Shown here piece by piece: positions 22,371 through 64,000 of a stretch of 64,000 nucleotides of DNA. The stretch lies in assembly GCA_963664395.2 (NCBI GenBank), contig OY761159.2, forward strand, positions 2,752,001 through 2,816,000, written 5' to 3'. This stretch comes from Candidatus Binatia bacterium. GTDB taxonomy: Bacteria > Desulfobacterota > Binatia > Bin18. The number at the start of each line of letters is the position of its first letter. Position 1 is the first letter of the stretch. The notes under the pieces are model-generated. The model was not told the DNA's origin. It did no database searches and saw nothing but the letters and a program-made list of their open reading frames with translations. Made by a program: the position numbers and the translations under genes.

Positions 22371-22449
22371 CGGCCGCTCAGCCAGCGTACTGAACAATCC
22401 ACAGGAGCGGCCCGATCTGCTCCGCATCCCTTATCCGTCGCCTCTGTTT

Positions 22450-23447: not shown

Positions 23448-23475
23448 TTGTGAGGAAAAGGATCAGGAGAGGGAA

Positions 23476-41154: not shown

Positions 41155-41190
41155 TTCGACTCACTGACAGACACTGATTTGGAGGCGGAC

Positions 41191-44675: not shown

Positions 44676-44704
44676 GAGGAGGGCCGCTAAGACCCTCCTT
44701 TTTT
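44676..44704 (+). terminator. hairpin plus U-tract inside the long end of the cassette
   Basis: GGAGGG...CCCTCC followed by TTTTTT. Confidence 0.55.
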
Positions 44705-44706
44705 AT

Positions 44707-44946: not shown

Positions 44947-45293
44947 AAATCTCCCTCCTGTACGCCAGAAGGAGGCGCTGAGGCCGACGCTAATGTGTCC
45001 AAAACTAAATCCTCAACGGCATCCTTGAATCCAGCGCTTGTAAGGATATCCTGAAGGGTTGTAACATCTTTCTGAAGATTATCGGGTCGAGAGAAGGTGA
45101 TCCAGGCCACCAGACCTACGACCACCAAAAACACGAACACCATCATCCCAATCGCAATCAACCTATGGAGTGAGTCTAGCTCGTTGGTGACAGTAATTAC
45201 CCCAATACTCGACTCGACAATCAACAGGGCTAACGCAAAAAATTTTAGGGGCGAACTGACTCCTCTGAGGATGTCAACAATGCGACGCTCCAC
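44943..45293 (-). CDS. 2-TM hypothetical cargo protein
   Basis: PLKFFALALLIVE TM pair; upstream TTGACT-18-TATACA promoter-like sequence. Confidence 0.6.
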   Translation of the reverse strand: MERRIVDILRGVSSPLKFFALALLIVESSIGVITVTNELDSLHRLIAIGMMVFVFLVVVGLVAWITFSRPDNLQKDVTTLQDILTSAGFKDAVEDLVLDTLASASAPPSGVQEGDL

Positions 45294-45387
45294 TCATCCC
45301 CCTTATTAGCTCAATGTATAGAAGAGGTTCAGCAAAAAAGTCAAGGATGGTCTCTTGACCCGCCGCCCACAGCCAACGAACACCATG

Positions 45388-46596
45388 TCACCTGACATCA
45401 GTAATCACAAAGTTCTGGATCGTCTCCAGCCACTCCAGCGTGACCGTCTCGCCCGGACTCGGAAAGTCCCCCACAACACAACTCCCAGCCGTGTCCTCCA
45501 AAAACTCCTCCCCCAAGGTCGTCACCCGCACCGTGGCCCGGCCTAACTCCATGTCGTCCACATAGGCTACGACGGTATGGACCCCATCGCCTATCTGGTT
45601 CCAGTTGACTAAGAACCCAAAGCCGTTGTCCGTATCGCCACACATCGCCTCCGTGTCGGCCCGCTCCGTGCCATACGCGGCCTCCTGACTGATCGTTCTC
45701 CCATCTGCGGTTTCTATGACAATTTCGACCACCTCGGCCTCGCACGCCCAGCCCGAGATGACCCCAATCCCACTCTGAAACGAGTTGGGGCTCGGGTTCT
45801 CCATATATCCCACTACTGCCCCCGACGTGCCATTGATTCCCACCGGGGCGGCCCCGCTTGCAATCACGAAATTCTGACTGCTCCGCTGCCACACCAGTGT
45901 CGTCGTCAGGCCCAGCTGCGGAAAGTCTGCCAACCGACACTCCCCGGCCACGCCTCGCACAAACCCTTCGCCCAACGTGGTCACCGTTACGGTCGCTCGA
46001 CCAAACTCTACCCCATCGGCTAGTGCTACAACCGTGTGCCCCCCATCCCCCAACAGACTCCAGTTGAAGAGGACGCTAAAGGCATTGTTCGTGTCCTCAC
46101 ACGCCTCTATGGTGCTCAATAGCTCGGTCCCATACGCCGCCCTGAGCCGCTGCCCATCTATCTCGATCTCCACTCGTTCGATCTCTCCGTTGCCGGTCCG
46201 ACAGACCCAGCCCCAAATCGGTCCAATCCCGCTCTGGAAGGAGGCCGGGCCAGGATTCTCTAGGGACCCCACCACGGTTTCGATCACCACGGTCACCGTC
46301 ACGGTCGCTCGATCAAACTCTACCCCATCGGCCAGTGCCACCACCGTGTGCTCCCCGTCCCCCAACTGATTCCAGTTGAAGGAGAGGCTAAAGCCATTAT
46401 GCGTGCCCTCACACGCCTCTGTGCTCAAGAGCGAGGGTATCATCCCATACGTCGCTATGTACCGCTGCCCGTCTATCTCGATCTCCACGCGCTCGATCTC
46501 TCCGTGGTCGGTCCGACAGACCCAGCCGAAAATGGGTCCGGTCCCGCTCTGGAATGTATCTGGACTCGGGCTCTCCAGGGACCCAACCACTACCAT
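45388..46596 (-). CDS. stand-alone protein built only of the LENP-FQSG-FNWN module
   Basis: three module copies (first incomplete); no signal peptide or passenger domain. Confidence 0.75.
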   Translation of the reverse strand: MVVVGSLESPSPDTFQSGTGPIFGWVCRTDHGEIERVEIEIDGQRYIATYGMIPSLLSTEACEGTHNGFSLSFNWNQLGDGEHTVVALADGVEFDRATVTVTVVIETVVGSLENPGPASFQSGIGPIWGWVCRTGNGEIERVEIEIDGQRLRAAYGTELLSTIEACEDTNNAFSVLFNWSLLGDGGHTVVALADGVEFGRATVTVTTLGEGFVRGVAGECRLADFPQLGLTTTLVWQRSSQNFVIASGAAPVGINGTSGAVVGYMENPSPNSFQSGIGVISGWACEAEVVEIVIETADGRTISQEAAYGTERADTEAMCGDTDNGFGFLVNWNQIGDGVHTVVAYVDDMELGRATVRVTTLGEEFLEDTAGSCVVGDFPSPGETVTLEWLETIQNFVITDVR

Positions 46597-46709
46597 AAGA
46601 ATAATAAATCGTCCGTAAGGGACCGCCTACAGGAGGAAAGTGACATCATCGGGGGGAACCCCGAGTGCAAAGCCTCCCGTGGCGGCTGTAATGGAACGGA
46701 CCCCTAGGC

Positions 46710-46919
46710 TTACTCCCACTTCTTTGCAGGGATCGGCTTGATTTGTCCACGTTCCACAAGGGCGTCGTGGAACTTTATCAGCCGACCTGTAATGAGGCAA
46801 TTAACCTCGGATCGTGTCATGTGCAGGCTGCTCTCCTTCGGTTCTTCGTGAGGCTCCGTACCGTTGTCAATCCTCTCTTGTACCAAATCTCTCATTTCCT
46901 GTAGCTTTTTTTCTTCCAT
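46710..46919 (-). CDS. small hypothetical cargo protein
   Basis: 69 aa with GGAG RBS next to the right TIR. Confidence 0.5.
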   Translation of the reverse strand: MEEKKLQEMRDLVQERIDNGTEPHEEPKESSLHMTRSEVNCLITGRLIKFHDALVERGQIKPIPAKKWE

Positions 46920-48187
46920 TCTTTACTCCCTTAGCACTGTAAGCGTCTGGTTCTTGCGGCTTTTTGATAAGAAATAACGCTGCGCTACGGGGGGTGAAAG
47001 ATTTCTTTTGTATTTTGGCCTGCGGGTAAATTGGTATATAATTCCCACCGCGAGGCAGTAGCGGGCTACTTACAGGAATGGTGCGGGGTAGCGCTCACCG
47101 GCGATTGCCGGGACGAGGCATGCATCTTCGCGTGGGGCGATCCGGGTTCTGGCAAATCAACATTTTCCGAGACGCTGTTGGCAGTAGCCGGGACGTTCGG
47201 GACGACCATCGGCAATGGCTCGCCGGTCTCCAAGGCAAACGCCTCGTTGTCGTCAACGAGCTTCCAGAACGCGGCCGGTGGCATTCGGACGATCTCAATC
47301 TGCTGATCGACGGAGGGCTAATCGAGGCTAACCGGATGCGCCAGAACTCCGCCGTCTTTGCATCACGAGCACACCTGCTTATAGCCAGTAACCATCGACC
47401 TTCTGCTCCGGCCGCGTCCGGCCTGTGGCGCCGGCTACGAATAGTTGAATTCCGCAACCGACCGACCGTGGTGGATAGGGGGCTCAAGCGTCGGTTAAAG
47501 GAAGACCTTCCGGGCGTGCTCGCATGGATGCTGCAAGGGCTACGGAGATGGAAGGAGCGTGGTCGGTTGCCAGACGTACCCGCGCTGATGGCGTGAGGCG
47601 TTGAGCGATACCGGCAGGCGGCAGACCCGATCTCGCGGTTCGTGGTTGAACGCACCGAGCCGGACGCCAAGGCGTCGATTGAGGTCGCCACGCTATACAA
47701 TGCCTTTAATTCGTGGTGGCGGGCGGAAGTCGATGACAGGGTGCCAAGCAAGAAAGCGCTTGGGCAGGCTCTCGACGAGATGGGGTGGCTGCCAGCGGTC
47801 GTACGACGGGGGAGTAGGCATCGGGTCGGCCACCGCTTGCGATGTGCAACGTGACAACGCGTGTTACGCGTTGTCCGGTATAGACGACTCACGCGCGTGC
47901 GTGAGGGACGGAAACAGGGGAAATACGTAACATACGTTGTCACGTTGCGAATGAACAAACCTAGGGAGGCTGGGCGCGCGGGGCTAGAGCAGTTTTCATG
48001 GTGGTGTAGCGAGGCGATAGCCGGCGTGGCGGAAGTAGTTGGCGCACTCGGCGGGGGAGAAGACCGGGAGGGCATGGCCGATGTCGTTATGGAAGCACTC
48101 GCTGAAAAATACGAGCTAGAGGTTGTAGCGTACGAGCCGTGATCCCTATTCCCCGGCTGGCGAAAGTCAAAAATAACCGGGGATACG

Positions 48188-48463
48188 TTGCCCGAAGGAA
48201 TACTCAAAGACTCGCCAGAAAAAGCAACCCAGGTCGCCGAAGAACTAACAAACGTCGCCAATCAGAAAGCACATGCACGACGTATTCATGCCCAAGACCT
48301 GAAAAACATGGGATTGGTCATCAAGGACCTTAAAGAGAACGATGACCTTCAAGAAGCAGTTTTATCCGTTCACCACGCTTTCATGATTGCTCTCTCCAAT
48401 TTCTGTCGGGTGCATGAGTCACTGCGCGTGACACCAGCACTGGAACCAAGTCCCGCCGATTGA
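48188..48463 (+). pseudogene. chimeric remnant: Clp-fold (SDH/S49) protease C-terminus fused to IS1-like transposase tail
   Basis: HARRIH...LQEAVLSVHHAFM followed by NFCRVHESLRVTPALE. Confidence 0.5.
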
Positions 48464-48810
48464 TCCGTTCCCACAGTTACGGGAGACCCACCGTCTGCAT
48501 AAACTCAACGTCCTGCGCGGCAGTGGACGTATCCGGTAAGGCTGACCAAATGAGGAGAATACTATATTTGACTCACCAAGCGAGACCCGCGCTTCCTTCA
48601 ATGAGGCCGTTCGCTTTGAAATTAAGCGGTTTGGCTTCCAATGCGGACAGGGCCAGCTCCTCAAGATGGCGGGAGCCCTCTACCGTTAGCTGGTAGGTTC
48701 TGAAATTCTCAACTTTGGTCCAGGCAAGTACAGTATATAACTCCCCCTTGGGAGGGATTGTCCGCAGGGTCTGTCCTGAGCGTGTCGCAGGGCCGGGGTG
48801 GGCAGGTCCT

Positions 48811-51800
48811 CTACTCCACGTCCGTAATCACAAAGTTCTGACTATTCTGGTGCCATTCCAGGGTAACGGTCCTGCCCAGCGTCGGAAAATCCTCAACAAT
48901 ACATTCGCCTTCAACGCCCCGTAGAAACTCTTCTCCCAGGGTCGTCACCCGCACCGTGGCCTGGCCTAACTCTACGTCATCCACATAGGCCACGACTTCA
49001 TGCTCCCCATCCCCCAACAGGTTCCAGTTGAACAAGAGGCCGAACCCATTATCCGTATCCCCACACGCCGACTCCGTATCCAGCCGCTCCGTGCCATACG
49101 CCGCCGGCTGTGGCACCCCGTTCAGCGCAATCAGGACCGCGTCCCCCTCACACACTCAGCCAGAGATCACCCCAATGCCGCTCTGAAAGGAGTTGGGGCC
49201 GGGGTTCTCCAGATACCCCACATCAATCGCTCCGGCTCGGTCCGCCCCGGTCGGGGCCGTGCCGCGGGCAATCACAAAATTCTGCTGCCTCTGTTGCCAC
49301 TCCAGCGTCGCCGTCTCGCCGAGCAGGGGGAAGTCCTCCACCACACATTCGCCCGCAACGCCCCGCACGAACTCCTCGCCCAGCGTCGTCACCGTCACCG
49401 TCGTCCGGCTCAACTCCACCCCATCGACCAGGGCCACGACTTCATGCTCCCCGTCGCCCAACAGGTTCCAGTTGAACAGCAAGCCAAAGCCGTTGTCCGT
49501 ATCCCCACAGGTTTCTTCCGTGTCCGACCGCTCGGTCCCATACGCCGCCGCCTGCGGCATCCCGTTCAGCTCTATCTCCACCTCGTCGGCGGCACATACC
49601 CAGCCCGAGATGACGCCGAGGCCACTTTGAAAGGAATCGGCGCCGGGGTTCTCCAGATTGCCGATGAGTTCCGGTTCTTCTTCGGTGGTGGCGGGGCCGC
49701 CGCCCCCGCCGCCCCCGCCCCTACCGCCGGTACTGGTGCCTGTCCCCGTGCCGGTACCCGTCCCACCGCCGGTACTGGTGCCACCACCACCGCCTGGAGG
49801 GGTGGGCGGCGGTTGGGACCCCTGGCTGGTGCCGCTGCACCCCGCGACCGAAGTCTCAGGCGAGACATATGTGTAGCTGCCGTCTGAGTCCGCCTCGATC
49901 CTGTTACCCGCGAGGTCCCGGAGACCCCTGCCCACAGCCACATAGCTGATATGAAGGCTGTGGTCGAAGGACTTCGCGAGCGTCAGCGTCACCTTCGTCC
50001 CGCAGAGCTGGACCCGGTCAAAGACGATAGGCAACCGGTCAGCAGAGGTGGTTACCACAGTGAAGTTTGTCGGCAGGGGCACCCATTCGGGGTCGAGCTC
50101 CTCGTCCCAGGTGGCCACCAGCGTGTAGCCGGCGACCTCCGCTGCGACCAACTTCGGCGGGGTGACGTCCAACCCGGCCTCCTGGCCGGTGACGTTCACG
50201 ACCGGATGGTCGTCAAAAGCAGCAGCGGCATTATATGCCACATCATCGATTCCTCCGCTGCCCGTATAGTTCAGCGTCACCGTGTCGCCCGCCATCACTG
50301 CCGTGTCCAGCGTCAGGATGACCCGCGCGCCGGTGACCCGCGCTTCGGTGACCGTACCCGAGATCCCGGTGAAGCTGGTCAGGTTCAACATCCCCGATGC
50401 CAAATCCTCGTTGTAGTCCAGCGCCAGCATGTTACCGTCCACGGTCGCCCGCACCAGCTGCGGCGGTGTCCCGTCCGTCATCACGGTCGCCTTTGCGACC
50501 GCGCCTTCGTTGTGGGGCGCTGTGTCGTCGTTGATGGCCCGGACCTCGACCGTATAGGGCTGACCAGTCATGAGGTCGTGGGTGGTATGGTTTGTCGTCT
50601 GCGGAGGGACCTCCGTCCAACTCGTCCCGTCCGGTACTGTCGAGCCCTGCGCGTAGCGGTATTCGTAGCGGATAAGATCGGCATAACCGGGAGATTCCGG
50701 CGCAAGCCACTCCAGGTGCAGGGAGGTCTGGCCAGCTACTCCCCGCAAGTACCGCACGGCCGTCGGCGCGCGCCGCTGGGGTGTGGCCGTAATACGGGAC
50801 GTATTCCACGGCCCCTGATCGCTCTGCGGGCGCACGTCGAAGTAATACAGGCGGTTGTATACCGAGAAGTCGGTGATCCCAACCGAGCACGGGCACGTAC
50901 GCCTTCCCAGGGCGGTGTACGGCTTGGAATCGAGCTCGCTCTCCGAGCGGGCGTAGCGGTACTCGTAACTAGTGACCGTCGCGCCGGCGATGTTCGCCGG
51001 CGTGTCCCAACCGAGCGTGATCCCATCGCCCATCCGTTCAGCCGTCAGCTTTCGCACCACGGGGCGGAGGCGGCCGTCCACCTTGTGGTCGGCCTGCGTC
51101 CCGCGTCCAGGGTGGATGAGGTCGGCGTCCACCCCGCCCGCCTTGATCGTCCCGCCGTTCAGTTGCAACCCACGACCGGTGTCGCGCCGGTCGTAGATGA
51201 AGAGGCCGTCGGTGTCCAGGTCGATAGCCGTGACGATGTAGAGCAGGAACAGTTCCGCGCCGCTACTGTCCGCCGCGCTGTACTCGGCCTGGCGCTCCTC
51301 GTCGTCGATGCCGAACACCAGCACCGGCGCTCCGGTGACGGTCACCGCCTCGCTGAACGTCGCAGTGAACCGGATCGTCACGCCGGCGGAGTAGATGTTG
51401 CCCTCCTGGTTCGGCGTGGACATGACGGCCAGCGACTTTACCCACGGCCCGGTCCGGCTGCCGTCCACCTTGTGGCCCGATTGATTGTTTACCGCGGAGT
51501 GGGTGATAAGGGCTGCGGCGCTGTCATCGGCCGCAAGGATGGTCCCGCCATTGAGTTCCAGGGCGTCCTGAGCAATGTTGATCCCGTCGGTGTCGGCGTC
51601 GCCCGCCTGGACCGTGTAGGTGAATTTGAGTGTGCTCGTGTCACTACCGCTCTGGTAGTTGGCGTACTGCATGTTGAGGAGCGGGAGCCGCGGCGTGCCG
51701 GTGACGGTCACCGCCTCGTTGAACGTCACCGTGAACTCAATCACCCCGCCCGCCCCGTAGACGTCTTTGAGCGCCTGACTGTTGTTCGGGGGAATGCTCC

Positions 51801-52437
51801 AGCGTTGCGGCGACGACGTGACTGCGATGCCCTGAGCCACGGGGAAGGTGTTCACGAACCCCTCTATCTTCAGCGTATAGGATTTGTCGTTGCCGATCGT
51901 CCATTGCGTAGGCGTAGCCCCAGTATCATACCAGCGGTGCTTATTGTGGATGGACCAGCCGGTCATGCTCCCGCTGTCCTCGGCGTCGGTTTCGGTGGTA
52001 TCAATCCTTGGCTTGTTGCTCTGGTCGATGGTACTGGTGACGCGGATACTCACGGCGTACGTGGTGCTCGGCGCGACGTTCATTCCGCTGTGCGTGAACG
52101 TCTTGAGACCAATGGCCGAGAAGCCGTCGGTCGGCGCCGTAAACGCGGTGCAGGTCGCGTTCGGCACATCCGTCACACCATCGGCAGTTTGGACGCCGCA
52201 GACCTTCAGCTCGAAAACGTCGGTCACTTTTTCCGTCTCGATCGTGATGGCGGTGATCGAGAAGCCGGCCGTGGACGCGGTGCCCGTTGTGAACGGTTGC
52301 GCCGAGTGGGGGACCCCGATGTCCTGGGAGCCGTCGGGCACCTGATCGACATTGGACACCAGGACGCTGGCTGTCTGCGCCGCCGCCCCGGCCCACAAGA
52401 CGCATATTGCCACAGTCATCACTATCAGTCGCTTCAT
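48811..52437 (-). CDS. large secreted adhesin-like protein (Ig-like, 2xFN3, 2xSwmB-like, Gly linker, 2x module) with internal TGA at 49156-49158
   Basis: signal peptide MKRLIVMTVAICVLWAGAAA; frame continues past a TGA at a position that is TGG (Trp) in paralogs. Confidence 0.8.
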
Positions 52438-52559
52438 GACGTTCACTCCTCTCATAAAGGCCCAATCCGCCCAGGCCGCCCCAGGACCAGCAGGGCACTC
52501 GCGCAGAGCAGAAATCGCTCCCACCTGTCGGCACCTGGATGAAGGCCCCTAGTCTAATG

Positions 52560-52605
52560 CAATGCCGTGCTCCCCGTCACCTATCAAATGATAGAAAAAT
52601 AACCC
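52560..52605 (-). promoter_or_regulatory. conserved upstream motif with CTATCA-AA-TGATAG palindrome (second copy at 60961-61006)
   Basis: 39/46 identity between copies, each upstream of a module-family gene. Confidence 0.65.
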
Positions 52606-52798
52606 TGTTTGGGGATCATGGACGGTCTGTGTCACTTCTCCCCGTAGACGCCGGGAATTTGATCCAAGCGTTCCTCGATGAGGGGTAGGAGCGCTTGAAC
52701 AAAACGGTCTGCCAGGAGACGATCTCTTGCCGGTACCGATAATCCACCGGCCATAAACGTGCTCTGCCTTTGCGGGCATGAGAGGGTGGGCAAGTTCC

Positions 52799-54460
52799 CT
52801 ACTCCACATCCGTCATCACAAAGTTCTGACTATTCTGTTGCCATTCCAGGGTGACGGTCTGCCCCAGAGCCGGGAAGTCCTCGACCATACAGTCCCCCTC
52901 AACGCCCCGCAGAAACTCCACGCCCAACGTCGTCACCCGTACCGTCGCCCGGCCCAGCTCTTCGCCGTCCACCCAGGCGACCACCGCATGCTCCCCATCG
53001 TCCAGCAGATTCCAGTTGAACAAGAGGCCAAAGCCATTGTCCGTATCCCCACACGCTTCTGCGGTATCCAGCCGCTCTGTGCCATACGTGGCCACGTGGC
53101 GCGCGACCTCTCCCCCCTCGCACACCCAGCCCGACAGCACCCGGACCCCACTCTGAAAGGAGTTGGGGCCGGGGTTCTCCAGATAGCCCACCCCGGCTGA
53201 CCCGGCCCGGTTCATTCCTGTCGGGGCCGGACCGGCTCGGATCACAAAGTTCTGCTGCGTCTCCTGCCATACCAGCGTCACGGTCTCCCCCAGAGCTGGG
53301 AAGTCCGGCACCGGACAGGTGCCGGCTACGTCTCGCAGAAACTCGCTCCCCAAGGTTGTCACCGTCACGGTAGCGCGGTCCAACTCGACGTCATTCACTC
53401 GGATGATCACCGTATGTTCCCCGGCCCCCAGCAGATTCCAGTTGAACAACAACCCAAAGCCGTTGTCCGTGTCGCCGCAGGTGTCTGCCGTGTCCAAGCG
53501 CGCCGTGCCATACGCGGCCTCCTGCCGCACGGTGGTCCCCCTCGCGGTCGCAATCTCGATCTCCACCGCCTCGGCCTCGCACACCCAGCCCGAGATAAGC
53601 CCGATGCCGCTCTGAAAGGACGCCGCGCCGGGGTTATCCAGATAGCCCTCAGGCTCAAAGGGCGGGGCCGACCGGCGCCCGCCACCACCACCCCCACTGC
53701 GCCCGCCACCGGTGGAGACCTCGGGGGGGACCTCGGTGGGGGGATCCGTGCCGCCACCGCCGGCGGCGACGGTGATGTCGAAGTCGTCGCTGACCGTCCC
53801 GCCCTTGCCGTCGCTGGCGGTCACCTGCACGGACACCGTCCCCACATCCGCCTCCGCCGGCGTGCCCGCGAAGGTCCGCGTGCCGGCGTCGAAGCTCAGC
53901 CATGTCGGCAGGTTCGTGCCGTCACCCTGCGTCGCCGTGTAGCTCAGCGTGTCGCTGTCCACGTCGCTGAACGTGGTCGTCGGGAAGGCGTAGCTGAACG
54001 CCGTGCCCGCCGTCGCCGTCTGGTCCGAAAGCGCGTTCGCCACCGTCGGCGCGGTGTTGGCGGCGGTGCCGGTGGTGGCGCTGGCGACGTTGGAGGGAAG
54101 GCCGGTGCCGATCGAGTTGATGGCCGAGACGCGGTAGTGGCGGGTGGTGCTGGCGGCCAGCTCGGTGTGCGCGGAGATGGTGGTGGTGCTGTTGGTGTTG
54201 GCGACCTGGTCGGTCCAGGTGGTGCCGCTATCGGAGGAGATCTCGATCTTGTAGCCGGTGATGACGCGGCCGCCGTTGTCGACCGGGGCGGTCCACGAGA
54301 GGTTGATCGTGGTGCTCCCGCTGGCGGTGGCCGTGAGGCCCGTCGGGGCGTCCGGGGCCGTCGGGGCGTTGGCCGGCCGGGTGGAGTTGTTGGTGACGGC
54401 GGGGACGCCGCCGGCGCCGGTGGTGAAGGACGCGGCGTCGTTGCCGGCGGTGTCCTGGAT
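52799..54460 (-). pseudogene. 5'-truncated adhesin-like gene (SwmB tail, FN3, putative Ig/He_PIG, 2x module)
   Basis: open frame from 54460 (IQDTAGN...) cut exactly at the TIR starting 54461. Confidence 0.8.
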
Positions 54461-54565
54461 GGGAATTATATATCACGTTACCCGTAGGCCACACGTAGCC
54501 TGCATTCTTCCTACACATACAGCTATATAACAAAAATGGGGCTGGGATAGTAATCGACGGATATG
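54461..54565 (+). mobile_element. 'long' end of TIR element (copy C); partner end not in window
   Basis: GGGAATTATATATCACGTTACCCGTAGGCCA plus conserved subterminal region. Confidence 0.85.
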
Positions 54566-54594
54566 GGGGAGAGGAGGCACTGCTCCCCCATGCT

Positions 54595-54867
54595 TTAGGC
54601 TGCGGGTTGATTGCGCTCTAGTAACCGCTCGATGCCCGCGCCCATCTTTGCGAGGGCCGCACTTTGATCTCGAATGCCCGCGCCGATGTCTTCAAGCACC
54701 TTGCCTTGCCGCTCCAATGCGGTGCCTTGCCGCTCCATTGATTTGTTGAGCACCATCGTCTGTTCCGCCCGACCCTCACTGCTCTTCTTCATCCAGCCAA
54801 TGCCCCAAAGAATGACGCCGAGCTGTGTGCCATACAAAAGAAGAGAGAAACTCTCGAATAATGTCAT
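54595..54867 (-). CDS. small TM plus coiled-coil hypothetical protein
   Basis: N-terminal TM, heptad repeats ERQGTAL/ERQGKVL. Confidence 0.6.
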   Translation of the reverse strand: MTLFESFSLLLYGTQLGVILWGIGWMKKSSEGRAEQTMVLNKSMERQGTALERQGKVLEDIGAGIRDQSAALAKMGAGIERLLERNQPAA

Positions 54868-55042
54868 AATTGCACCATCCTGAATATATCCTTCATAACA
54901 AAATCAGGCCGCGCTGTCTGGAGCCTCATTCCCTCCGCGCCCGCTCACTTTTCCTATCCACATTCTCTATATAACAAAAATGGGGATAAGAGAGTAAGTG
55001 ACTGTTAGAGGACCGTATCAATGAGTCAGGAAGGATGTTCTT

Positions 55043-55489
55043 CTAGTGGAGCGTGGCGGCAACAACGAGAGAATGATCTTCCTCAGCAATATACACCTCA
55101 TATGTGACGCGATTCAGACGGGACCCCTCTTCCCGCAGCCGATGCGTTCCCCCATCTCCCTCCGATCTTGACGCTAAACGGCGTCCACTGACTTGCGCCT
55201 CACATCTCCGCAGGCCAATGTCTTTGTCCCACTCGGTCATGTGGATATAGTAAAGCGTAAACGGCTGATTGCGGAACACATCCATGCCCTCTTTATCTGT
55301 ATAAGAAAGATGTCTCGTATTGTGGGCGACAAGATTCTCTTGCACTATGTCGAGAGCCAGTGCTTGTACGTCCGCATCACCGCACATAGGCGAAACAAGC
55401 GCATTGGGAAGCGTCTGCCCCTCACTACATCCCACACCACAGACCGTAAGACTACAGAGTAGGAACACCCGCAGAAAGGGATTCATCAT
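55043..55489 (-). CDS. hypothetical lipoprotein-like protein
   Basis: signal with GVGC lipobox-like motif; AGGAGG RBS. Confidence 0.6.
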   Translation of the reverse strand: MMNPFLRVFLLCSLTVCGVGCSEGQTLPNALVSPMCGDADVQALALDIVQENLVAHNTRHLSYTDKEGMDVFRNQPFTLYYIHMTEWDKDIGLRRCEAQVSGRRLASRSEGDGGTHRLREEGSRLNRVTYEVYIAEEDHSLVVAATLH

Positions 55490-55532
55490 GCCCTCCTTTT
55501 ACGCCGCCATCTTCCGCTTGATATACCCCTTG

Positions 55533-55826
55533 CTAGCGCTGCCTCAGCGAGTTCGCGCGGCTTGTTGGTCTCGGCACACAATCAGCATCGCAAGAATAGA
55601 TAATTCTAGCGCTTCCACTCTTCCCAACTCCCTTAAGACGGAGCCGGTCTTTAACTACTGAGTATTCGCCTAACTTAGGTATTTGGTGACTTGTATAGGG
55701 GGTCCCAGATGTACTGCATTTGTCTAGGTACTTTTTAACAGTATCTTGTAAATCCGGGTGTTTCCTTATGAGCAGCTTAAGACTTTTAGAAAAGCCCTCG
55801 GTGTAGATAACTTTACGGGACTTCAT
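55533..55826 (-). CDS. RelE/HigB-like toxin, C-terminus probably truncated
   Basis: YTEGFSKSLKLL...GKSGSARIIY. Confidence 0.65.
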   Translation of the reverse strand: MKSRKVIYTEGFSKSLKLLIRKHPDLQDTVKKYLDKCSTSGTPYTSHQIPKLGEYSVVKDRLRLKGVGKSGSARIIYSCDADCVPRPTSRANSLRQR

Positions 55827-56252
55827 TTACCGCCAAGCTTTTTTCAAGCAAGTTCTTAAATTCCAAGCTTGCCGCTAATGAGAGCGATTCCGACGCATCT
55901 TCTGCAAAGCATGCCGCATCATCAAGAAGTCGTTGGGTAGCAGAAGAAAATGCTATGCGTGCAGATTTTTTTTAGCCTCATCTATCCTTTCTGAAAGCCC
56001 AAGCAATTGCTCAGACCTATCTTCGCACCACGAACGATCTTCATCTGTTTCAATAACGAGAAACCCAATCATTTTAACAATACGCGCCAGTTGCCAGCGA
56101 ACTTGAAGCGCCATAACCAGAATCAAAAAACTACAAGACACAGCCTCGAAGATTTTCACATGTTCTCGATAAAGTCGCTCCAATATTTTCCTAGTGCGGT
56201 TATTTGACTCTGTTGTAACCGTCTCCAGCACCGAGAAACTGGTTGTTACCAT
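55813..56252 (-). pseudogene. putative antitoxin partner, frameshifted at an A8 tract
   Basis: adding one A at 55966-55973 extends the ORF to overlap the toxin start. Confidence 0.55.
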
Positions 56253-56307
56253 GTGTAGTCTCCTTTTATTTATCGCAGCGCGGTGGCGTCTCTTTCAAGA
56301 GTAGGTT

Positions 56308-57129
56308 TCAGCAGGATAAGAGGCTACCGGGTCCGTTTCTCAAGTTTGGTAGTACCCCCTCCTCTATCTCGGAAGTATATACCAGCTTACCCATAGCCGA
56401 AAATACCGCTGCATCAAAAAGGCATGGGGGAGTCTCGGCCTTCTCACATAACTCCTGAATGCCGTCCAACACAAATTCATAAAACTCTTGGTTAGTAAGC
56501 ATGCCGGCATGAAGTTTCGCATGACCCTGGGGTAGGGACTGATTCAGCCATTTGATAACCCGACTGTCGAGGGGAATTTCGTACCGAGTCAGCCCAAGCA
56601 ACTGAAGCAGGTTACGGGATTGTTTCGGACCGAACCCCTTGAATACCTGGGCGATCTCCTGCGCGACCCTACGCTCCTCCTTAGCCGAGACAAGTCTGGT
56701 CAACTGATTGCATTTGGGGAGGACGTTCTGCCACCCCTTTTCCTTCTCAAGATACTGCAAATTGTACGTGAGGTCCCGCGCACTCTGCTTGTACTTTCCA
56801 ATCCCATGCGTACGAACAGTCTCTCGAATAAATCCCTCTTTCCCTCTTTTGGGGCGCACGATTTCATAGGCGAGAGGGAAGGGGCTCTCTCTTCCTAGTT
56901 TATCTACTGGACTCCCTGGCCCCACTTTGTTCTGCATGGTAAGGCGAGCCAGGACCATTTCACGCCAAAAGTCCTCTTTCCTTACGTCTGGCTTTTTTGC
57001 GGCAAGGTTCTTCGCCCGCTCTGTGGCCAGTTGCTGGAACAGGGGCGCTTGCGCCTGGCTCTCAAGAACCTCCTGAACGCGGGCTATGTCACGACCCTGA
57101 GTTTTCCACTGAATCTCCAACATTCTCAA
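56308..57129 (-). CDS. HhH-superfamily (8-oxoG glycosylase-like) protein
   Basis: FKGFGPKQSRNLLQ...IPLDSR HhH-K...D pattern. Confidence 0.55.
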   Translation of the reverse strand: MRMLEIQWKTQGRDIARVQEVLESQAQAPLFQQLATERAKNLAAKKPDVRKEDFWREMVLARLTMQNKVGPGSPVDKLGRESPFPLAYEIVRPKRGKEGFIRETVRTHGIGKYKQSARDLTYNLQYLEKEKGWQNVLPKCNQLTRLVSAKEERRVAQEIAQVFKGFGPKQSRNLLQLLGLTRYEIPLDSRVIKWLNQSLPQGHAKLHAGMLTNQEFYEFVLDGIQELCEKAETPPCLFDAAVFSAMGKLVYTSEIEEGVLPNLRNGPGSLLSC

Positions 57130-57326
57130 TCTCCGTTCTTCTCGATGCGCGCCACTCCCCGTTCATCAATGCAGTAGGCCACTTCCCTCATAAAAGTGGA
57201 ATAAGCATCCAGGACTCGTAGTTCCTGCAAAACCCCAGGGGCCAACCGAGTATAGACGAAATCATTGGTATAGTGACCAATTACAGACGGACGCTTGACG
57301 CCAATTGGACCCCGCCCGGGGGTCAT
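57126..57326 (-). pseudogene. P63C-domain remnant
   Basis: KRPSVIGHYTNDFVYTRLAPGVLQEL. Confidence 0.6.
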
Positions 57327-57442
57327 CAGTAAAATAAATTAGTTACATGCTTGCAGACAGTATGTATCGACGACACTCTGGCTGTCCGGAGTCCGAGCCG
57401 GGTGTAGTCAGATGCTGACCCCCCGCTTGGTCTCCGCCTGCG

Positions 57443-60400
57443 CTAGCGGTGTTCTACCTCCACCGCGTTGCTACTGCAGTTGTTGGTGGTATCCGTCTCG
57501 CCCCGCGCCGCGACCACACAAGCCCAGTAGTAGTAGGTCCCCGGCTCTGGCTGAGGATCGGGGAAGGTGTACGTCAACTCACGATAATAAGTCGTATTGG
57601 GCTGGACAACATGAACCCTCCACCCCGAGTCTAACCTCTTGTCGTTGGATGCCGATATCGCCGCATCGCTCGACCGATAGAACCAGAGCCTGGTAGGAAA
57701 TGACTCCCCGGTTCCGTCATTCCGCACGCGCGCGACGAGCGTACCTCCCCCAGCTCTCATCTCGCTGACAACAAGGTCCGATGCCCCCGCTATTGCGGTC
57801 CGCACGGACGTGAACGGCCCCCCGCTCGAACAGGCGATGGTGGAATCCGGATCGCTCGTCGCCGCATCGACGCACGCCCCGTAATACCATTCGCCGGTGG
57901 TCCCGGGCGCCGTCAGCGTAATCGATTCCCGTCTCCAAGCCGACCTGGAAGACGAGAACGCCTCCATCGCGATTGTGCCCACCTCCGTGTCCGATCTCGT
58001 AATCGTCCTGTCCGGCGAGCGGTAGAGGCGCAGCGTCGTCGCCGGCAAAGCCACATACCCAGGGCTCAATGTCACCGACATCGAGAATGTCTCGCCCGGC
58101 GTTACGGTGGCGGACACAACTACCTTCACCCCTACGTTGGCCCAAGGGTTATTTTCGGGTTGCGTCTGCTCTACCCCTACCTGCACGCGTACCCCGCTCG
58201 AACAGTTGTTCGTCGTGTCCCCTTCCTTATGCACCGCGTCCACGCAGGCGCCGTAGTAGTAGGTTCTGACGCTCGTCGGCGCGGTTATCAAGCCCGTCGC
58301 GTGGTAGGTCATCCCGACGAGAAGATCGCGAACCGAATACGTGCCCAGCTCCGTGTCCCACGTCGTGATCGTCGCGTCCGTCGAGCGGTAGAACCGCAGC
58401 GTCGTACGCGTTGCCCAGTAGCCGCCCGCGTTGCGCACCGTCGCCGAGAAGGTGAAGGCCGTTCCGGCGGCCGGGCTGTCGTTGCTCACCCCGGGTGAAA
58501 GCACCACTAGGTCCGGTGGCGTTCCCCGAACCGGACCCGGACCCGGACCCTGACTCGTGATCGGAACCGGAACCGGACCCGCGACCCTGACCGTGACCGT
58601 CACGGCCGGGGAGCAGTTGTTGGTCGTGTCCGACTCATCCGTCACCGCATCGACGCACGCCCCGTAGTAGTACGTGCCGGGGCTCGAGGGCGCCGTCACC
58701 GGAGTCGCCATGCGGGGGCTGCCCGCCGCCGCGAGCGCGCGCACCGCGTCCGTCCCCACCTCCGTGTCCTCCGTCGTGATCGTCGCGTCCGGCGAGCGGT
58801 AGTAGCGCAGCGTCGTGGCCGCCGACTCTCCGTCGCCCGTGTTCGTTACCGTAGCAAACAAGTAATCGCTCTCTCCGGTCTCGGGAGTGTTGTTGGTTAT
58901 CCTCAGCGCCCCTACCACCAGGTCCGGTTGGCTCTGAATTTGCTGCTGCGTTACCAGAACCGTTACCTCTCTAGAGGACGAGCAGTTGTTGGTCGTGTCG
59001 GACTCGTCCGCCACCGCGTCCACGCACGCGCCGTAGTAGTATGCGCCGGGGCTCGAGGGCGCCGTCAGCGCAATCGACTCGCTGCTGGTCCCCGAAGCGG
59101 CCAGCCCCGCCACCGCGGCCGTGCCCACCGCCGTGTCCGTTGCCGTGATCGTCGCGTCCGTTGACCGGTAGAACCGCAGCGTTGTAGCGGCAGCGGCGCC
59201 GTCCCCCTCGTTCCGTACCGTGGCCGACAGCGTGAACGGCGCACCCGCCTCCAGGGTATCCTCGCTCACCGACGGCGCCGTCACCGCCAAGTCCCCGCCC
59301 GCCGGCTCCCGCCGGTTCTGCGGCGCGGTGGGGGTGGACCGCCCGCCCGCCGATGTCCCCCGGCTCCCGCCCGCCGATGTCCCCTGGCTCCCGCCCGCGG
59401 CACGCGCCGCCGGCGGCGCAGTGACCGCGCCCGCCGTATAGTCCACTATCACAAAGTTCTGACTGGTCTGGTGCCATGCCAGCGTGACCGTCTGGGCCAG
59501 AGCCGGGAAGTCCTCCACCACACACTCGCCCTCAGCCCCCCGCACAAACTCCTCGCCCAGGGTCGTCACCCGCACCGTGGCCCGGCCTAACTCCATGTCG
59601 TCCACATAGGCCACGACCTCGTGCTCCCCCTCGCCCAGCAGGTTCCAGTTGAACAACAACCCAAACCCGTTGTCCGTGTCCCCACACGCCTGCAGCGTGT
59701 CCTGCCGCTCCGTGCCATACGCGGCCGGCTGTGGCACCCCGTTCAGCGCAATCAGGACCACATCCCCCTCACACACCCAGCCCGAGATGACCCCAATGCC
59801 ACTCTGAAAGGAGTCGGGGCCCGGATTCTCCAGATACCCCACCCCCGGCACCCCCGCCCGGTTCTCCCCGCTCGGGGCCATGCCGCTGGCGAGGACAAAG
59901 TTCTGCTGCGTCTCCTGCCACACCAGCGCACCCGTCTCGCCCACCATGGGGAAGTCGGGTGCTGCACATGTCCCCGTCACGCCCCGCACAAACTCCGCCC
60001 CCAGGGTGGTGACCGTCACCGTGGCGCGACCCAATTCAACGTCATCCACAAACGCCACGACTTCGTGCTCCCCGTCGCCCAACAGGTTCCAGTTGACCAA
60101 GAGCCCAAAGCCGTTGTCCGTATCCCCACACGCGGCTGCCGTGTCGCGCCGCTCCGTGCCATACCCGGCTTCCTGACTGATCGTTCTCCCATCTGCGGTT
60201 TCTATGACAATTTCGACCGCGTCGGCCGCACATACCCAACCCGAAATCACCCCGATGCCGCTCTGAAACGCATGCAGCCCCGGATTCTCCAGAGAGCCGC
60301 TGGACTCCGCAGACATCTCGCTGCCACCGCCCTTGCGGCCGCTGCTCCCAGAAGCGGTCCCAGTGCCCCCGGTAGTGCCCCCGGTAGTGCCCCCACCAGT

Positions 60401-60838
60401 GCCCCCGGTAGTGCCCCCACCAGTGCCCCCGGTGGCGGCACTGGCCATCGTATCGAGGTCAACATACTTAACCTCAGGCAGACCCTCGATGGCGCGCTGC
60501 TCAGCCTTGAGTTCGGCCAGCGTCAGGGTGTCAGGCACGTGTTCGGCAATGAGCTGCTTGAGGCCGTCCAGCCGGCGCGCGACCGTCCAGCCCGCGCGCT
60601 GCTCCACTGCCGCGGCGGCCTGATCTACGGTGGAGCCCTGCGCTACTGCTATGAGGAGGGTGTCCAGGATCACACAGGCGTCACCATCACGGGCGACGCG
60701 GCCAAAGCCGCGCGTCTCGTCACAGGGGGCCGCGTCGCCCTGGGCTGCGACCGGCGGGCTGGCCGCCAGACCCACGATAAGCAATACCGCGGCCAGGACG
60801 AGGCCAGCTCTCAGTCTTCTACCTTCAGTCTTTCTCAT
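57443..60838 (-). CDS. large secreted protein: propeptide-like domain, Gly linker, 2x module, ~5 CARDB-like repeats
   Basis: signal peptide; repeated LRFYRS.D.TIT...YYYGACVDAV..ESDTTNNCS. Confidence 0.8.
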   Translation of the reverse strand: MRKTEGRRLRAGLVLAAVLLIVGLAASPPVAAQGDAAPCDETRGFGRVARDGDACVILDTLLIAVAQGSTVDQAAAAVEQRAGWTVARRLDGLKQLIAEHVPDTLTLAELKAEQRAIEGLPEVKYVDLDTMASAATGGTGGGTTGGTGGGTTGGTTGGTGTASGSSGRKGGGSEMSAESSGSLENPGLHAFQSGIGVISGWVCAADAVEIVIETADGRTISQEAGYGTERRDTAAACGDTDNGFGLLVNWNLLGDGEHEVVAFVDDVELGRATVTVTTLGAEFVRGVTGTCAAPDFPMVGETGALVWQETQQNFVLASGMAPSGENRAGVPGVGYLENPGPDSFQSGIGVISGWVCEGDVVLIALNGVPQPAAYGTERQDTLQACGDTDNGFGLLFNWNLLGEGEHEVVAYVDDMELGRATVRVTTLGEEFVRGAEGECVVEDFPALAQTVTLAWHQTSQNFVIVDYTAGAVTAPPAARAAGGSQGTSAGGSRGTSAGGRSTPTAPQNRREPAGGDLAVTAPSVSEDTLEAGAPFTLSATVRNEGDGAAAATTLRFYRSTDATITATDTAVGTAAVAGLAASGTSSESIALTAPSSPGAYYYGACVDAVADESDTTNNCSSSREVTVLVTQQQIQSQPDLVVGALRITNNTPETGESDYLFATVTNTGDGESAATTLRYYRSPDATITTEDTEVGTDAVRALAAAGSPRMATPVTAPSSPGTYYYGACVDAVTDESDTTNNCSPAVTVTVRVAGPVPVPITSQGPGPGPVRGTPPDLVVLSPGVSNDSPAAGTAFTFSATVRNAGGYWATRTTLRFYRSTDATITTWDTELGTYSVRDLLVGMTYHATGLITAPTSVRTYYYGACVDAVHKEGDTTNNCSSGVRVQVGVEQTQPENNPWANVGVKVVVSATVTPGETFSMSVTLSPGYVALPATTLRLYRSPDRTITRSDTEVGTIAMEAFSSSRSAWRRESITLTAPGTTGEWYYGACVDAATSDPDSTIACSSGGPFTSVRTAIAGASDLVVSEMRAGGGTLVARVRNDGTGESFPTRLWFYRSSDAAISASNDKRLDSGWRVHVVQPNTTYYRELTYTFPDPQPEPGTYYYWACVVAARGETDTTNNCSSNAVEVEHR

Positions 60839-61050
60839 CTCCCACCCTTCCTGTTCTTGCTCGGGCCTTCCCTGCCTCGCCATCTTCTCTTGCCGGGCAG
60901 TGGCACGGCGGCGGGGGGGATAGTGCGGTTACCGACCCCCAGAGAAGGTCCCTTATAATTCAATGCCGTAGCCCCTGTCCCCTATCAAATGGTAGAAAAA
61001 TGACCCCGCCCGGGCCTGCGCATGTCACCGGGCCGGGATGAGCAGAGCCG

Positions 61051-64000
61051 CTACTCCACGTCCGTAATCACAAAGTTCTGACTGGTCTGCTGCCATTCCA
61101 GCGTGACGGTCTGGGCCAGGCCGGGGAAGTCCTCGATGACACACTCCCCCTCGACCCCGCGTAGAAACTCTTCTCCCAGGGTCGTCACCCGCACCGTGGC
61201 CCGGCCTAACTCTACCCCATCCACGAACGCTACGACTTCATGCTCCCCCTCCCCCAATAGATTCCAGTTGAACAAGAGGCCAAAGCCGTTGTCCGTATCC
61301 CCACACGCTTCCGCGGTATCCACCCGCTCCGTGCCATACGCTGCCACGTGGCGCCTGACCGCTCCCCCCTCGGTCGTGATCTCGATCTCCACCTCGTCTC
61401 CCTCGCACACCCAGCCCGACAGCACCCCGATGCCACTCTGAAACGAGTTGGGGCCGGGGTTCTCCAGATAGCCCACCTCGGCTGACCCGGCCCGGTTCAT
61501 TCCTGTCGGGGCCGGACCGGCTCGGATCGCAAAGTTCTGACTGTTCTGCTGCCAGACTAAGCGCACCCGCTCGCCTGCATGTGGAAAGTCTTCGACTAGA
61601 CACTCGCCCGCGGCGGCGCGGAGAAACTCCTCCCCGAAGGTCGTCACGGTCACCATGGCCCGTCCGAGTTCGACCCCGTCAACGCGGGCCACGACCTCAT
61701 GCTCGCCATCGCCCAGCAGGTTCCAGTTGAACAGGAGGCCAAAGCCATTGTCCGTGTCCCCACACACCCCGGCTGTGTCTAACCGCTCCGTCCCATACGC
61801 CGCCTCCTGCGGGGTCCCGTTCAACTGGATCTCGACCGTCTCCGCCTCGCAGACCCACCCGGAGAGAACCCCGATGCCACTCTGAAACGAATCGGCGCCG
61901 GGGTTCTCTAAGAACCCTACCACCAGATACGTCTCCACGGTGTACGTCCCGGTCTGCCGCCCGTTGCCCGCCACGGCCACCACCACCAGCCCCGCTGCCA
62001 CCGGCACGCTCAGCCGAAAGTTCCGCCGGGCGCCCCCGCTGTCCGCCATCCCCAACTCGACATCGTTCAGCCACACAGTCCCCACCGTATCGGTCGAGCC
62101 CGTGGTCTCCACCACCAACACGCCGGCGTGGGGCACGCTGAGCGTGAAGTAGTCCACATCGTCCGCACTGTTGGCTTGCCCCGGCGTGGAGGACGTCCAC
62201 GGCGCGGTGCCGCCAAGGGAGACCGCGGTCGCCTGCCCCGGGCTGTCCCCGTGCCGGTCCTGGGGGCCGCTGCCCCCGCCACCCCCGCCCGTACCGCCGG
62301 TGTTACCCGGTGGGGGCGGCGGGGGCGGGCGGTCGTCATCCAGAATCGTACCAAGCGCGCCATCCGTACCGACATTGACTATTCTGACCCCGAACGGCAG
62401 GCTGTTTGTCGTTACGAACAAGAGCAAGGTCTCGTTGGGCTCAATCGCCGTATCGTCTGTTGTTTGCACCGTAATCGTGCGGGTGCTCTCGCCCGCCGGG
62501 ATCGTTACGGACCCGGACTGGTTCGCCGGATAGTCCACACCGGCCGTCGCCGTTCCAACCCGGATATCGCTCATATGCCAGTCAAGGATTATGTCCGCCG
62601 GCACCGGCGCCGACAACTGCACTGTGAAGCGGATGGGCGTGCCCTCCGCCGCTGCGCTGTTATTGACGGTGATCTCGACGAACTCGACGGCGACCTCCAC
62701 CTCGTACAGCCCGGTTTGCTGGTCCGTGGCCCCCCGGACCTTCAGGTAATACACACCCGCCTCAAGGCGTCGTTGGAGCAGAAAATCCTTGCTGGCGAAC
62801 GACACGGCCTCGCTGGTCGCAATCGACATGCTATTGCTGTCCAACAGCTCGCCGACGAGCCGGAGTTGGGGAGCAAGAGTCAAAGCAGCAATACCGCGAA
62901 TGACCAGGTCGGTCGCGGCGGGCAGTTCAATTCTGAAGTAATCGACGTCGCCGGCGGGAGCGATCAGGCCCCCTGCGGTATCGCGGTGCACCTGGGGGGT
63001 GATGGTCAACTCCGCGGCATCGGCCGGGCCTGCCGTATCCTGCCCCGTCCCGGTTTTCAGAGAATAGAATCCTGTCGCACCCGCATGCCCACTGACCTTG
63101 ATGGAGTATATTCCTGCGGGGAGCGAGCGGGCGAGGAAAAAATTATTCCGGCCGATCACGTCATAATTATTTTCCGCAATCAGGTGGCCATTGCTGTCCA
63201 GCACCTGCCCGACGGTATCAAGCCCACCGGTGGTGCGGATGGTGATATCGGTCGTGGCGGACAGGTCGATCGTGAAGTAATCGACGTCGGAGCTGGAGGT
63301 GATGGCTCCTTTCACCGTGCGATTCAGCGGCAGGTCCGCTGCCGTGGCCCGGTCGTTGCCGTGGTCAGGCGTCGTCTCGGTTTGCAGCGTATAGAATCCT
63401 GTCGCGCTCCCGCGAGCGCTGACCTTGAGGTAGTACGTCGTGCCTGCGGCAAGCGCGTAGACGAGGGAAAAATCTTTCGGATTGCGGAAGAAATCAATAT
63501 TGCCGTCGTTGTTTTGCGTCAGCACATTGCCATTGCTGTCCAATAACTGCCCCACGGTATCAATTCCACTATAGGTGCGGACATGGATCTCGGTCGCGGC
63601 GGCCGGTTCGATCGTGAAGTAATCGACGTCGGAGCCGGAGCTGATATATCCCAGCACGGTACTATCCAGCGGCAGGGACGCCGCGGTGGGCCGGTCGTCG
63701 CCGTGGTCTGCGGTTCTTGTCGGCGTGACGTCGGACCACGCCCCGGCGCCCGTGGCGTTGTGCGCCCGCACCTGTACCCCGTACCACCAATCGTCCAGGA
63801 GTCCGCTGAGCGTATATTCCAGCACGCCGGCGTCGACCGTCACCGTCCCAGCGTAGTTGTAAGTACTGCTCTGGTAGTGGAGCTCGTAGGCGCTGATGGC
63901 CGAGCCGCCGGTGTCGGAGGGGGCATCCCAAATGATGTGCAGCGAGCCGCTGCCGGGGGTCACGCTCGTGATGGTTGGTGGGGCGGGCGTCTGGGCCCAG
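61051..64000 (-). CDS. large surface protein, 5' end outside window: FN3, PPC-like repeats, Calx-beta, 2x module
   Basis: WDAP/Y.VQVRA FN3; DVDYF PPC repeats; TATAGVDY...DDTAIEPNE Calx-beta. Confidence 0.8.
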   Translation of the reverse strand, partial: WAQTPAPPTITSVTPGSGSLHIIWDAPSDTGGSAISAYELHYQSSTYNYAGTVTVDAGVLEYTLSGLLDDWWYGVQVRAHNATGAGAWSDVTPTRTADHGDDRPTAASLPLDSTVLGYISSGSDVDYFTIEPAAATEIHVRTYSGIDTVGQLLDSNGNVLTQNNDGNIDFFRNPKDFSLVYALAAGTTYYLKVSARGSATGFYTLQTETTPDHGNDRATAADLPLNRTVKGAITSSSDVDYFTIDLSATTDITIRTTGGLDTVGQVLDSNGHLIAENNYDVIGRNNFFLARSLPAGIYSIKVSGHAGATGFYSLKTGTGQDTAGPADAAELTITPQVHRDTAGGLIAPAGDVDYFRIELPAATDLVIRGIAALTLAPQLRLVGELLDSNSMSIATSEAVSFASKDFLLQRRLEAGVYYLKVRGATDQQTGLYEVEVAVEFVEITVNNSAAAEGTPIRFTVQLSAPVPADIILDWHMSDIRVGTATAGVDYPANQSGSVTIPAGESTRTITVQTTDDTAIEPNETLLLFVTTNSLPFGVRIVNVGTDGALGTILDDDRPPPPPPPGNTGGTGGGGGGSGPQDRHGDSPGQATAVSLGGTAPWTSSTPGQANSADDVDYFTLSVPHAGVLVVETTGSTDTVGTVWLNDVELGMADSGGARRNFRLSVPVAAGLVVVAVAGNGRQTGTYTVETYLVVGFLENPGADSFQSGIGVLSGWVCEAETVEIQLNGTPQEAAYGTERLDTAGVCGDTDNGFGLLFNWNLLGDGEHEVVARVDGVELGRAMVTVTTFGEEFLRAAAGECLVEDFPHAGERVRLVWQQNSQNFAIRAGPAPTGMNRAGSAEVGYLENPGPNSFQSGIGVLSGWVCEGDEVEIEITTEGGAVRRHVAAYGTERVDTAEACGDTDNGFGLLFNWNLLGEGEHEVVAFVDGVELGRATVRVTTLGEEFLRGVEGECVIEDFPGLAQTVTLEWQQTSQNFVITDVE

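Follow-up and report, generated by a model that had tools for sequence, protein, structure and literature searches.

Proteins exported through the type IX secretion system of Bacteroidota end in one immunoglobulin (Ig)-like sandwich of 70–100 amino acids (aa), the type IX C-terminal domain (TIGR04183 / Por_Secre_tail, PF18962), which is strictly C-terminal and is carried by unrelated Sec-exported cargo whose genes are scattered over the genome. Dockerins and SLH triplets follow a related principle, in that a small constant unit built from repeats occupies one end of varied exported proteins, often behind a flexible linker; a dockerin comprises two calcium-binding loop-helix repeats of ~22 aa each, SLH repeats span ~55 aa, and both kinds are largely helical. 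PPC domains (PF04151) form beta-sandwiches near the C-terminus of secreted proteins, Big_7 domains (PF17957) are all-beta Ig-like sandwiches, and PEP-CTERM, LPXTG, and MYXO-CTERM signals combine a short motif with a hydrophobic helix and a basic tail. Here we describe a module that is shared, usually as a tandem pair, by five neighboring genes (G1 to G5) with unrelated passengers in a 64,000-nucleotide (64-kb) stretch of DNA from Candidatus Binatia bacterium (GenBank assembly GCA_963664395.2, contig OY761159.2, positions 2,752,001 to 2,816,000 of the forward strand), hereafter called the window. Judged by its sequence, the module represents an undescribed Ig-like domain family and a candidate for a curated family. 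The family is much larger than the window alone could reveal, and there is good reason to suppose that the pair acts as a tether or sorting handle for the proteins that carry it.

Eleven module copies in five neighboring genes

An initial annotation of this DNA had reported about 11 copies of an unnamed module of ~150 aa in the five genes. A six-frame scan of the window with a hidden Markov model (HMM) built from 128 modules confirmed this observation and located exactly 11 copies, all on the minus strand between positions 45403 and 61920, and none in positions 1–45000. Repeat finding, which is independent of the HMM, returned DNA repeat families of 10–11 copies that were 60–87% identical to the reference copy. 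The module proper measures only 126–137 aa; the length of ~150 aa holds for the repeat period of 142–153 aa, of which 15–18 aa is spacer. Pairwise identities among the window copies were 57–86% for DNA and 49–87% for protein, so that the copies are clearly alike, and the high DNA similarity ascribed to them is better described as moderate. The second modules of G2 to G5 were nearest one another (77–87% aa identity). The genes and their modules, with module limits taken from the HMM scan, are the following:

45388–46596, minus strand: G1, a 402-aa open reading frame (ORF) made of modules only (two full and one truncated), C-terminal end ITDVR
46273–46587, minus strand: module G1a, truncated to the Ig half (HMM positions 2–99 of 133)
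45862–46272, minus strand: module G1b
45403–45813, minus strand: module G1c
48811–52524, minus strand: G2, with signal peptide, choice-of-anchor R domain (choice_anch_R), fn3, SWM repeats (SWM_repeat), Gly/Thr linker, and module pair, end ITDVE
49270–49665 and 48826–49221, minus strand: modules G2a and G2b
52799–54460, minus strand: G3, with fn3, He_PIG, Gly-rich linker, and module pair, end MTDVE
53240–53650 and 52814–53191, minus strand: modules G3a and G3b
57443–60883, minus strand: G4, 1146 aa and apparently intact, with signal peptide, a domain of ~100 aa, Gly/Thr linker, module pair, and then CARDB repeats
59891–60301 and 59447–59842, minus strand: modules G4a and G4b
61051–64000, minus strand: G5, with fn3, PPC-like domains, Calx-beta, and module pair, end ITDVE
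61525–61920 and 61066–61476, minus strand: modules G5a and G5b

The passengers named by the initial annotation (FN3/SwmB, He_PIG, CARDB, and PPC/Calx-beta) were borne out by Pfam; they are of types usual in surface or secreted proteins and are wholly different from one protein to the next. An ITDVE-like end was likewise found in four of the five genes (G1, G2, G3, and G5). The Gly/Pro/Thr linker said to precede the module in the four large genes stands directly before it in G2, G3, and G4, and lies one PPC-like domain further upstream in G5. The pair of G4 is N-proximal and is followed by the CARDB repeats (Pfam E 5.4e-37). Sec-type signal peptides were read by eye in G2, in G4, and in full-length G5, whose start lies 38 codons past the window edge and whose complete product of 1020 aa, signal peptide included, is the database protein P0157.

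Only G4 and G5 look intact. G1 is probably a dead copy; it has neither signal peptide nor passenger, its modules G1a and G1b carry a degenerate form of the CGDTDNGFG loop that is conserved elsewhere, and it is identical to the database protein P0003. In module b of G2, a TGA at 49156–49158 replaces the TGG codon of an invariant Trp that every other copy keeps. G2 is otherwise open, and the TGA has arisen either by a recent nonsense mutation or through an error in base calling. The frame of G3 is open upstream to 54460 and then meets an arm of a terminal inverted repeat (TIR) at 54462, so that its 5' part is lost.

Two further features of G4 were observed. Its residues ~48–140 (window positions 60460–60740), between signal peptide and linker, form a domain of ~100 aa with no match in Pfam or NCBIfam. 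The Gly/Thr linker contains, at 60348–60442, six head-to-tail copies of a 12-nt unit, and slippage could alter its length.

Comparison with described families

The initial annotation could not assign the module to a named family, and our screens agree with it. Pfam and NCBIfam models were compared with the five window proteins, 9 single window modules, the 128 single modules, and 47 sampled full-length relatives, and no family was assigned to the module region; a match to a well-characterized Pfam/InterPro domain was looked for in Pfam and was not found. PDB sequences gave no match at E ≤ 10 with one module profile (A1) and one chance-level match with a second (A2), to OspA at E 0.38. The only recurrent weak signal was Big_7. 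In G1 its three copies together summed to 34.9 bits (cut-off 24.1; E 2.4e-8), and no single stretch passed alone. Among the 128 single modules none scored below E 0.01 and three reached E values of at least 0.017, and one of the 9 window modules scored E 0.017. The clusters nearest in a language-model search also carry Big_7 in part, which is a weak lead only. In the source databases these proteins are named only "hypothetical protein" or "fibronectin type III domain-containing protein". We found no description of the module in the open-access papers searched on Binatota/Binatia, sponge symbionts, eukaryotic-like proteins, or choice-of-anchor domains, and passages of PMC9531527 do not mention it.

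The likeness to Big_7 lies in the first ~97 aa, which the structural model described below shows as an all-beta Ig-like sandwich. The pattern GW.C...V.V.V.G....A.YG..R.D......GF.....L..G.H of the module resembles that of many Big_7-type domains. Unlike Big_7 domains, single modules remain below the gathering score, and the module has an extra extension of ~40 aa, a conserved Cys pair, and a fixed paired use at the protein end.

With the type IX C-terminal domain the module shares the Ig-like sandwich, the C-terminal position, the unrelated Sec-exported cargo, and genes scattered over the genome. The type IX model, however, matched no module; its only match was a sub-threshold one to a PPC domain of G5 (residues 254–305, E 0.0026, 17.7 bits, cut-off 23). 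The type IX domain is moreover single and always C-terminal, whereas the unit found here is a pair of ~290 aa that also occurs in N-terminal or internal position, and its host lineage is Binatia.

The organization of dockerin and SLH proteins is comparable, but the module is all-beta with one short helix and has no Pfam dockerin match, and Pfam scans of the window proteins and the 128 modules gave no SLH match. We know of no cohesin-like or polymer partner for the module. True PPC domains adjoin it in G5, where it sits after them and not in their place, and the module itself has no PPC match. In contrast to PEP-CTERM, LPXTG, and MYXO-CTERM proteins, the proteins studied here end in a beta-strand, QNFVITDVE, and no model of these types in Pfam or NCBIfam matched their C-termini. 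No known anchor or sorting domain was detected in the window proteins or sampled relatives by Pfam or NCBIfam.

Predicted fold

Structure prediction with the 128 aligned modules as input gave an all-beta model of the single module with one short helix, a predicted local distance difference test (pLDDT) score of 94.5, and a predicted template modeling score (pTM) of 0.82; all five models scored 88–94.5. A Foldseek comparison of the single module with the PDB returned only generic Ig-type matches. The best single-domain match was the filamin domain of TRIM3 (TMt 0.54; root-mean-square deviation 3.7 over 102 columns), and further matches were to two-domain antibody and T-cell-receptor chains (TM 0.3–0.4). 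From the model we read the module as an Ig/filamin-like beta-sandwich of ~97 aa with a conserved three-strand extension of ~40 aa, which would be distantly Big_7-like. The best model of the pair reached a pLDDT of 90.5, and the other four scored 39–67. Compared with the PDB, the pair model matched generic strings of Ig domains (TMq ≤ 0.24).

Size, architecture, and taxonomic range of the family

We searched 1.84 billion cluster representatives with a profile built from the nine full-length modules of the window; 2689 matched at E ≤ 0.001, 2107 at E ≤ 1e-10, and 1073 at E ≤ 1e-30. The constant-plus-variable architecture proposed from the window is thus real and extends far beyond it. In the best 150 of the 2689 representatives, on which all architecture counts given here are based, the module occurs twice in 144 proteins, three times in 5, and four times in 1, and the spacer between the first two copies is 15–18 aa in 131. 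The pair lies at the extreme C-terminus in 124 of the 150 proteins, near the N-terminus (starting at residue 21–58) in 16, and internally in 10. Most of the 124 C-terminal forms have 4 residues between the end of the pair and the stop codon, with TDVE (31 proteins) or a similar TxVE-like sequence at the terminus. In 45 of the 124, the 40 aa that lead up to the pair are rich in Gly, Pro, Thr, and Ser (at least 50%). In the non-C-terminal forms the pair is followed by CARDB, PPC, LDL-receptor-B, leucine-rich repeat (LRR), fn3, or FGE-sulfatase domains.

The passengers found in 120 listed relatives include LRR families (22, counted by hand), cadherin, fn3, SRCR, Calx-beta, and SWM repeats, as well as enzymes, namely arylsulfotransferase, sulfatase, metalloprotease, subtilase, M14 peptidase, and glucose/sorbosone dehydrogenase. 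A choice-of-anchor R domain, a name that marks domains located ahead of varied C-terminal anchors, is present in G2 and in 4 of the 47 sampled relatives; a search with this part of G2 for relatives with other anchors gave 3 matches only.

In species-representative genomes 334 stretches were matched, 313 of which encode a relative. The best 80 of the 334 yielded 77 loci of 12 kb from 18 records, with search patterns that favor close relatives. Within this set, 15 records titled Candidatus Binatia or Binatota contribute 68 loci, and one record titled Thermodesulfobacteriota contributes 7; one more lies on a 1.7-kb contig labeled Acidimicrobiia and one on a contig labeled Deltaproteobacteria. Among the matches listed, the family is therefore lineage-specific, as had been supposed. 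A single chromosome accounts for 21 of the 77 loci. Binatota have been reported from marine sponges (PMC9999580, PMC9531527).

Two or three module-bearing ORFs lie within 12 kb in ten of the 77 loci (L008, L035, L042, L048, L052, L053, L059, L069, L073, and L075), so that local clusters like that of the window are common. The genes that recur beside the loci are generic metabolic paralogues (luciferase-like monooxygenase in 36 of the 77, short-chain dehydrogenase/reductase, hydrolase, CoA-transferase, acyl-CoA dehydrogenase, and amidase).

Conservation, selection, and export

The alignment of 128 modules has 11 invariant columns and another 35 with at least 90% conservation (46 together). Both modules of the pair retain a polar and aromatic set, which may form a calcium or glycan site and includes Q13, S14, W22, Y47, R51, D53, D60, N70, W71, N72, H79, W128, Q133, and N134 and the loop C-G-D-x-D-N-G-F-G. 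This degree of conservation is high for an Ig-type spacer and far above that of the passengers. The window modules showed ratios of nonsynonymous to synonymous substitution (dN/dS) of 0.11–0.53, mostly 0.12–0.3, at dS values of 0.43–2.2; the copies are old and under purifying selection. Cys24 is present in all 128 modules and Cys58 in 127, and a third Cys occurs in only 75. The retention of Cys24 and Cys58 suggests a disulfide bond and thus an exported protein. A crude hydropathy screen found a hydrophobic N-terminus in 91 of the 150 best relatives.

Possible functions of the pair

The initial annotation proposed a surface anchoring, sorting, or polymerization domain. The reading that we favor, if tentatively, is that the pair is an extracytoplasmic tether. 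It would form the constant part of a display system in which varied Sec-exported passengers, either eukaryote-like adhesion repeats or enzymes, are joined to it, often via a flexible linker, and are held on one common ligand, which could be a glycan or another component of the cell's own envelope or of a host matrix. Such a pair would work in the same way as SLH triplets, dockerins, and terminal carbohydrate-binding modules. We favor a tether because the pair is a folded unit of fixed geometry that is used at either protein end, because it often stands behind a flexible linker (in 45 of the 124 C-terminal forms and in G2, G3, and G4), because it is far better conserved than its passengers, and because, like anchoring and binding modules, it is found with adhesion-type repeats and with enzymes alike.

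Several points weigh against a tether. Both binding and location are inferred. The Foldseek matches are all of generic Ig type, so no lectin or anchor relative backs the proposal, and the relative orientation and packing of the two modules are uncertain because four of the five pair models score poorly. Neighbor clustering of the 12-kb loci revealed no conserved partner gene beside the 77 loci. Three of the five window genes are broken, which means that this locus is not a working array. Finally, the strict C-terminal placement and the conserved last strand, QNFVITDVE-COOH, would also fit a C-terminal sorting tag.

Such a tag is the main rival explanation, and we regard it as rather unlikely. 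The pair would then be a lineage-specific C-terminal sorting or secretion signal, read by dedicated outer-membrane machinery after Sec export and perhaps cleaved or modified, by analogy with the Ig-like C-terminal domain of type IX cargo. Its position at the extreme C-terminus in 124 of the 150 proteins, with only 4 residues past the profile end and a conserved NFVITDVE terminus, is what a tag would predict, as are the N-terminal signal peptides, the beta-sandwich fold, and the dispersal of dozens of cargo genes on one chromosome (21 of the 77 loci, one record); cargo genes of sorting tags are usually scattered over the chromosome. A tag is harder to reconcile with the 26 proteins in which the pair is N-terminal or internal and other domains follow it, as in G4, with a length of ~290 aa in two copies, which is much larger than that of known tags, with the lack of a TIGR04183 match in the module, and with the observation that no machinery gene recurs near the 77 loci. 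A broader version, to which we give a similarly low probability, holds that the pair is the recognition handle of a novel route for surface display or secretion that is specific to host-associated Binatia. A single constant tag would in that case bring dozens of eukaryote-like adhesion proteins and enzymes in each cell to the interface between symbiont and host.

A somewhat smaller chance attaches to self-association, the polymerization of the earlier proposal, in which the pair would join its carriers to one another or into a surface lattice or matrix. Many different proteins of one cell have the same pair, and tandem Ig-like domains often mediate homophilic contacts; the disagreement of four of the five pair models about the packing of the modules would also be in keeping with such a role. 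The conserved polar and aromatic surface set could, however, as easily be a ligand site. Least probable of all is a passive stalk, an Ig-like structural spacer with no specific partner that was copied along with gene duplications in a repeat-rich lineage, since spacers are not normally fixed in end, number, and spacing across unrelated passengers, and 46 columns of the module are at least 90% conserved while the passengers' own Ig-type repeats vary freely, even though the generic Ig and filamin-type strings returned by Foldseek, the weak Big_7 signal, and the partly Big_7-bearing language-model clusters would all suit a stalk.

Recombination among modules

Sliding-window comparison showed that several modules are mosaics of other modules. 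G1c is nearest to G4b, then to G4a (83–91%), and then to G4b again, and G2b switches from G4b-like to G5b-like. In two-breakpoint maximum-chi-square tests of four triplets, with 1000 permutations each, the observed value was reached by 0, 2, 0, and 6 permutations; the triplets were picked after the similarity profiles had been viewed, and part of the signal could stem from rates that vary along the module. The mosaic modules point to past recombination. The diversification by recombination that had been proposed is partly supported; the tracts are old and lie inside the modules. The longest exact runs shared between genes measure 22–51 nt and dS is at least 0.43, which argues against recent exchange. 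That one pair is joined to unrelated passengers implies a shuffling of domains.

The loop that follows the third strand has a long form in G1c, G3a, G4a, and G5b, a short form in G2a, G2b, G4b, and G5a, and a deleted form in G3b. Long and short forms both occur among the first as well as the second modules of pairs, a pattern in line with exchange between modules. A FastTree tree did not resolve first and second modules into clades of their own; its best split placed 78 of 108 labeled modules correctly with a support of 0.06, and there was no clean separation across species.

Mobile elements and other genes of the window

One complete element with TIRs and two solo copies of its terminal repeat were identified at these positions:

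44489–47046, no strand assigned: complete TIR element of 2558 bp, with inverted repeats of ~30–37 nt
54462–54491, plus strand: solo terminal repeat, directly beside the broken 5' end of G3
43107–43136, minus strand: solo terminal repeat, upstream of a primase gene

The complete element is flanked by an 8-bp target duplication, ACCGCGAG, at 44481–44488 and 47047–47054. It interrupts a P4-type primase gene, the frame of which resumes beyond the scar into the Walker-A motif; the primase halves match D5_N and DUF5906 in Pfam. Its cargo comprises G1, a 116-aa membrane-like ORF (44943–45293), and small ORFs. No transposase was recognized in it by eye, the small ORFs not having been scanned against family libraries, and it is a non-autonomous-looking mobile element. 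No second arm was found downstream of the solo repeat at 54462–54491, and none was found for that at 43107–43136, where ~160 nt form a mirror image of the complete element's left end (inverted pairs I1 and I2). The proposed spread of the module by TIR cassettes is not supported. Only G1 lies in a complete element, the arm beside G3 truncates that gene and does not carry it, and the TIR pattern was found in 0 of the 77 related loci.

The solo arms have subterminal sequence in common over ~70–160 nt (repeat families D16 and D17; inverted pairs I1 and I2). Behind the arm next to G3, a low-GC stretch (54462–57440) contains ORFs with no Pfam match, among them a lipoprotein-like ORF (55043–55489). 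The remains of a P4-like integrative island occupy 41179–42372, 43140–44677, and 47049–47596 and include a tyrosine integrase with an Arm-DNA-binding domain, the primase, and, upstream of the primase, a short frame that by eye resembles an excisionase-type regulator. The primase also shifts frame soon after its Walker-A motif, apart from the insertion. The window contains no tRNA gene that could be a target of the integrase.

Elsewhere in the window, positions 12786–15599 and 17501–24648 encode subunits of a soluble di-iron monooxygenase, methylmalonyl-CoA mutase with MeaB, and acyl-CoA dehydrogenase, which are consistent with the hydrocarbon and C1 metabolism described for Binatota (PMC8262859). 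Outside the five-gene region the window also holds many CoA-dependent enzymes, and this gene content suits a Binatota genome.

Significance

Symbionts of sponges and corals carry many eukaryote-like repeat proteins (LRR, cadherin, and fn3), and the pair may bear on how these reach the host interface and are retained there. Single eukaryotic-like proteins are reported to change bacteria-sponge interactions (PMC13747020). The pair described here, which belongs to no named family, is shared by a very large number of such proteins within a single lineage. It provides an easy sequence criterion by which the full exported repertoire of these bacteria can be listed, and a concrete object for the study of binding, localization, and cleavage. 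If the pair were the handle of a novel export route, it would represent a protein-sorting system of a new kind, comparable in rank to type IX cargo domains or exosortase tags. Were it a tether or a sorting tag, it would be usable as a display handle in the biology of uncultured symbionts.

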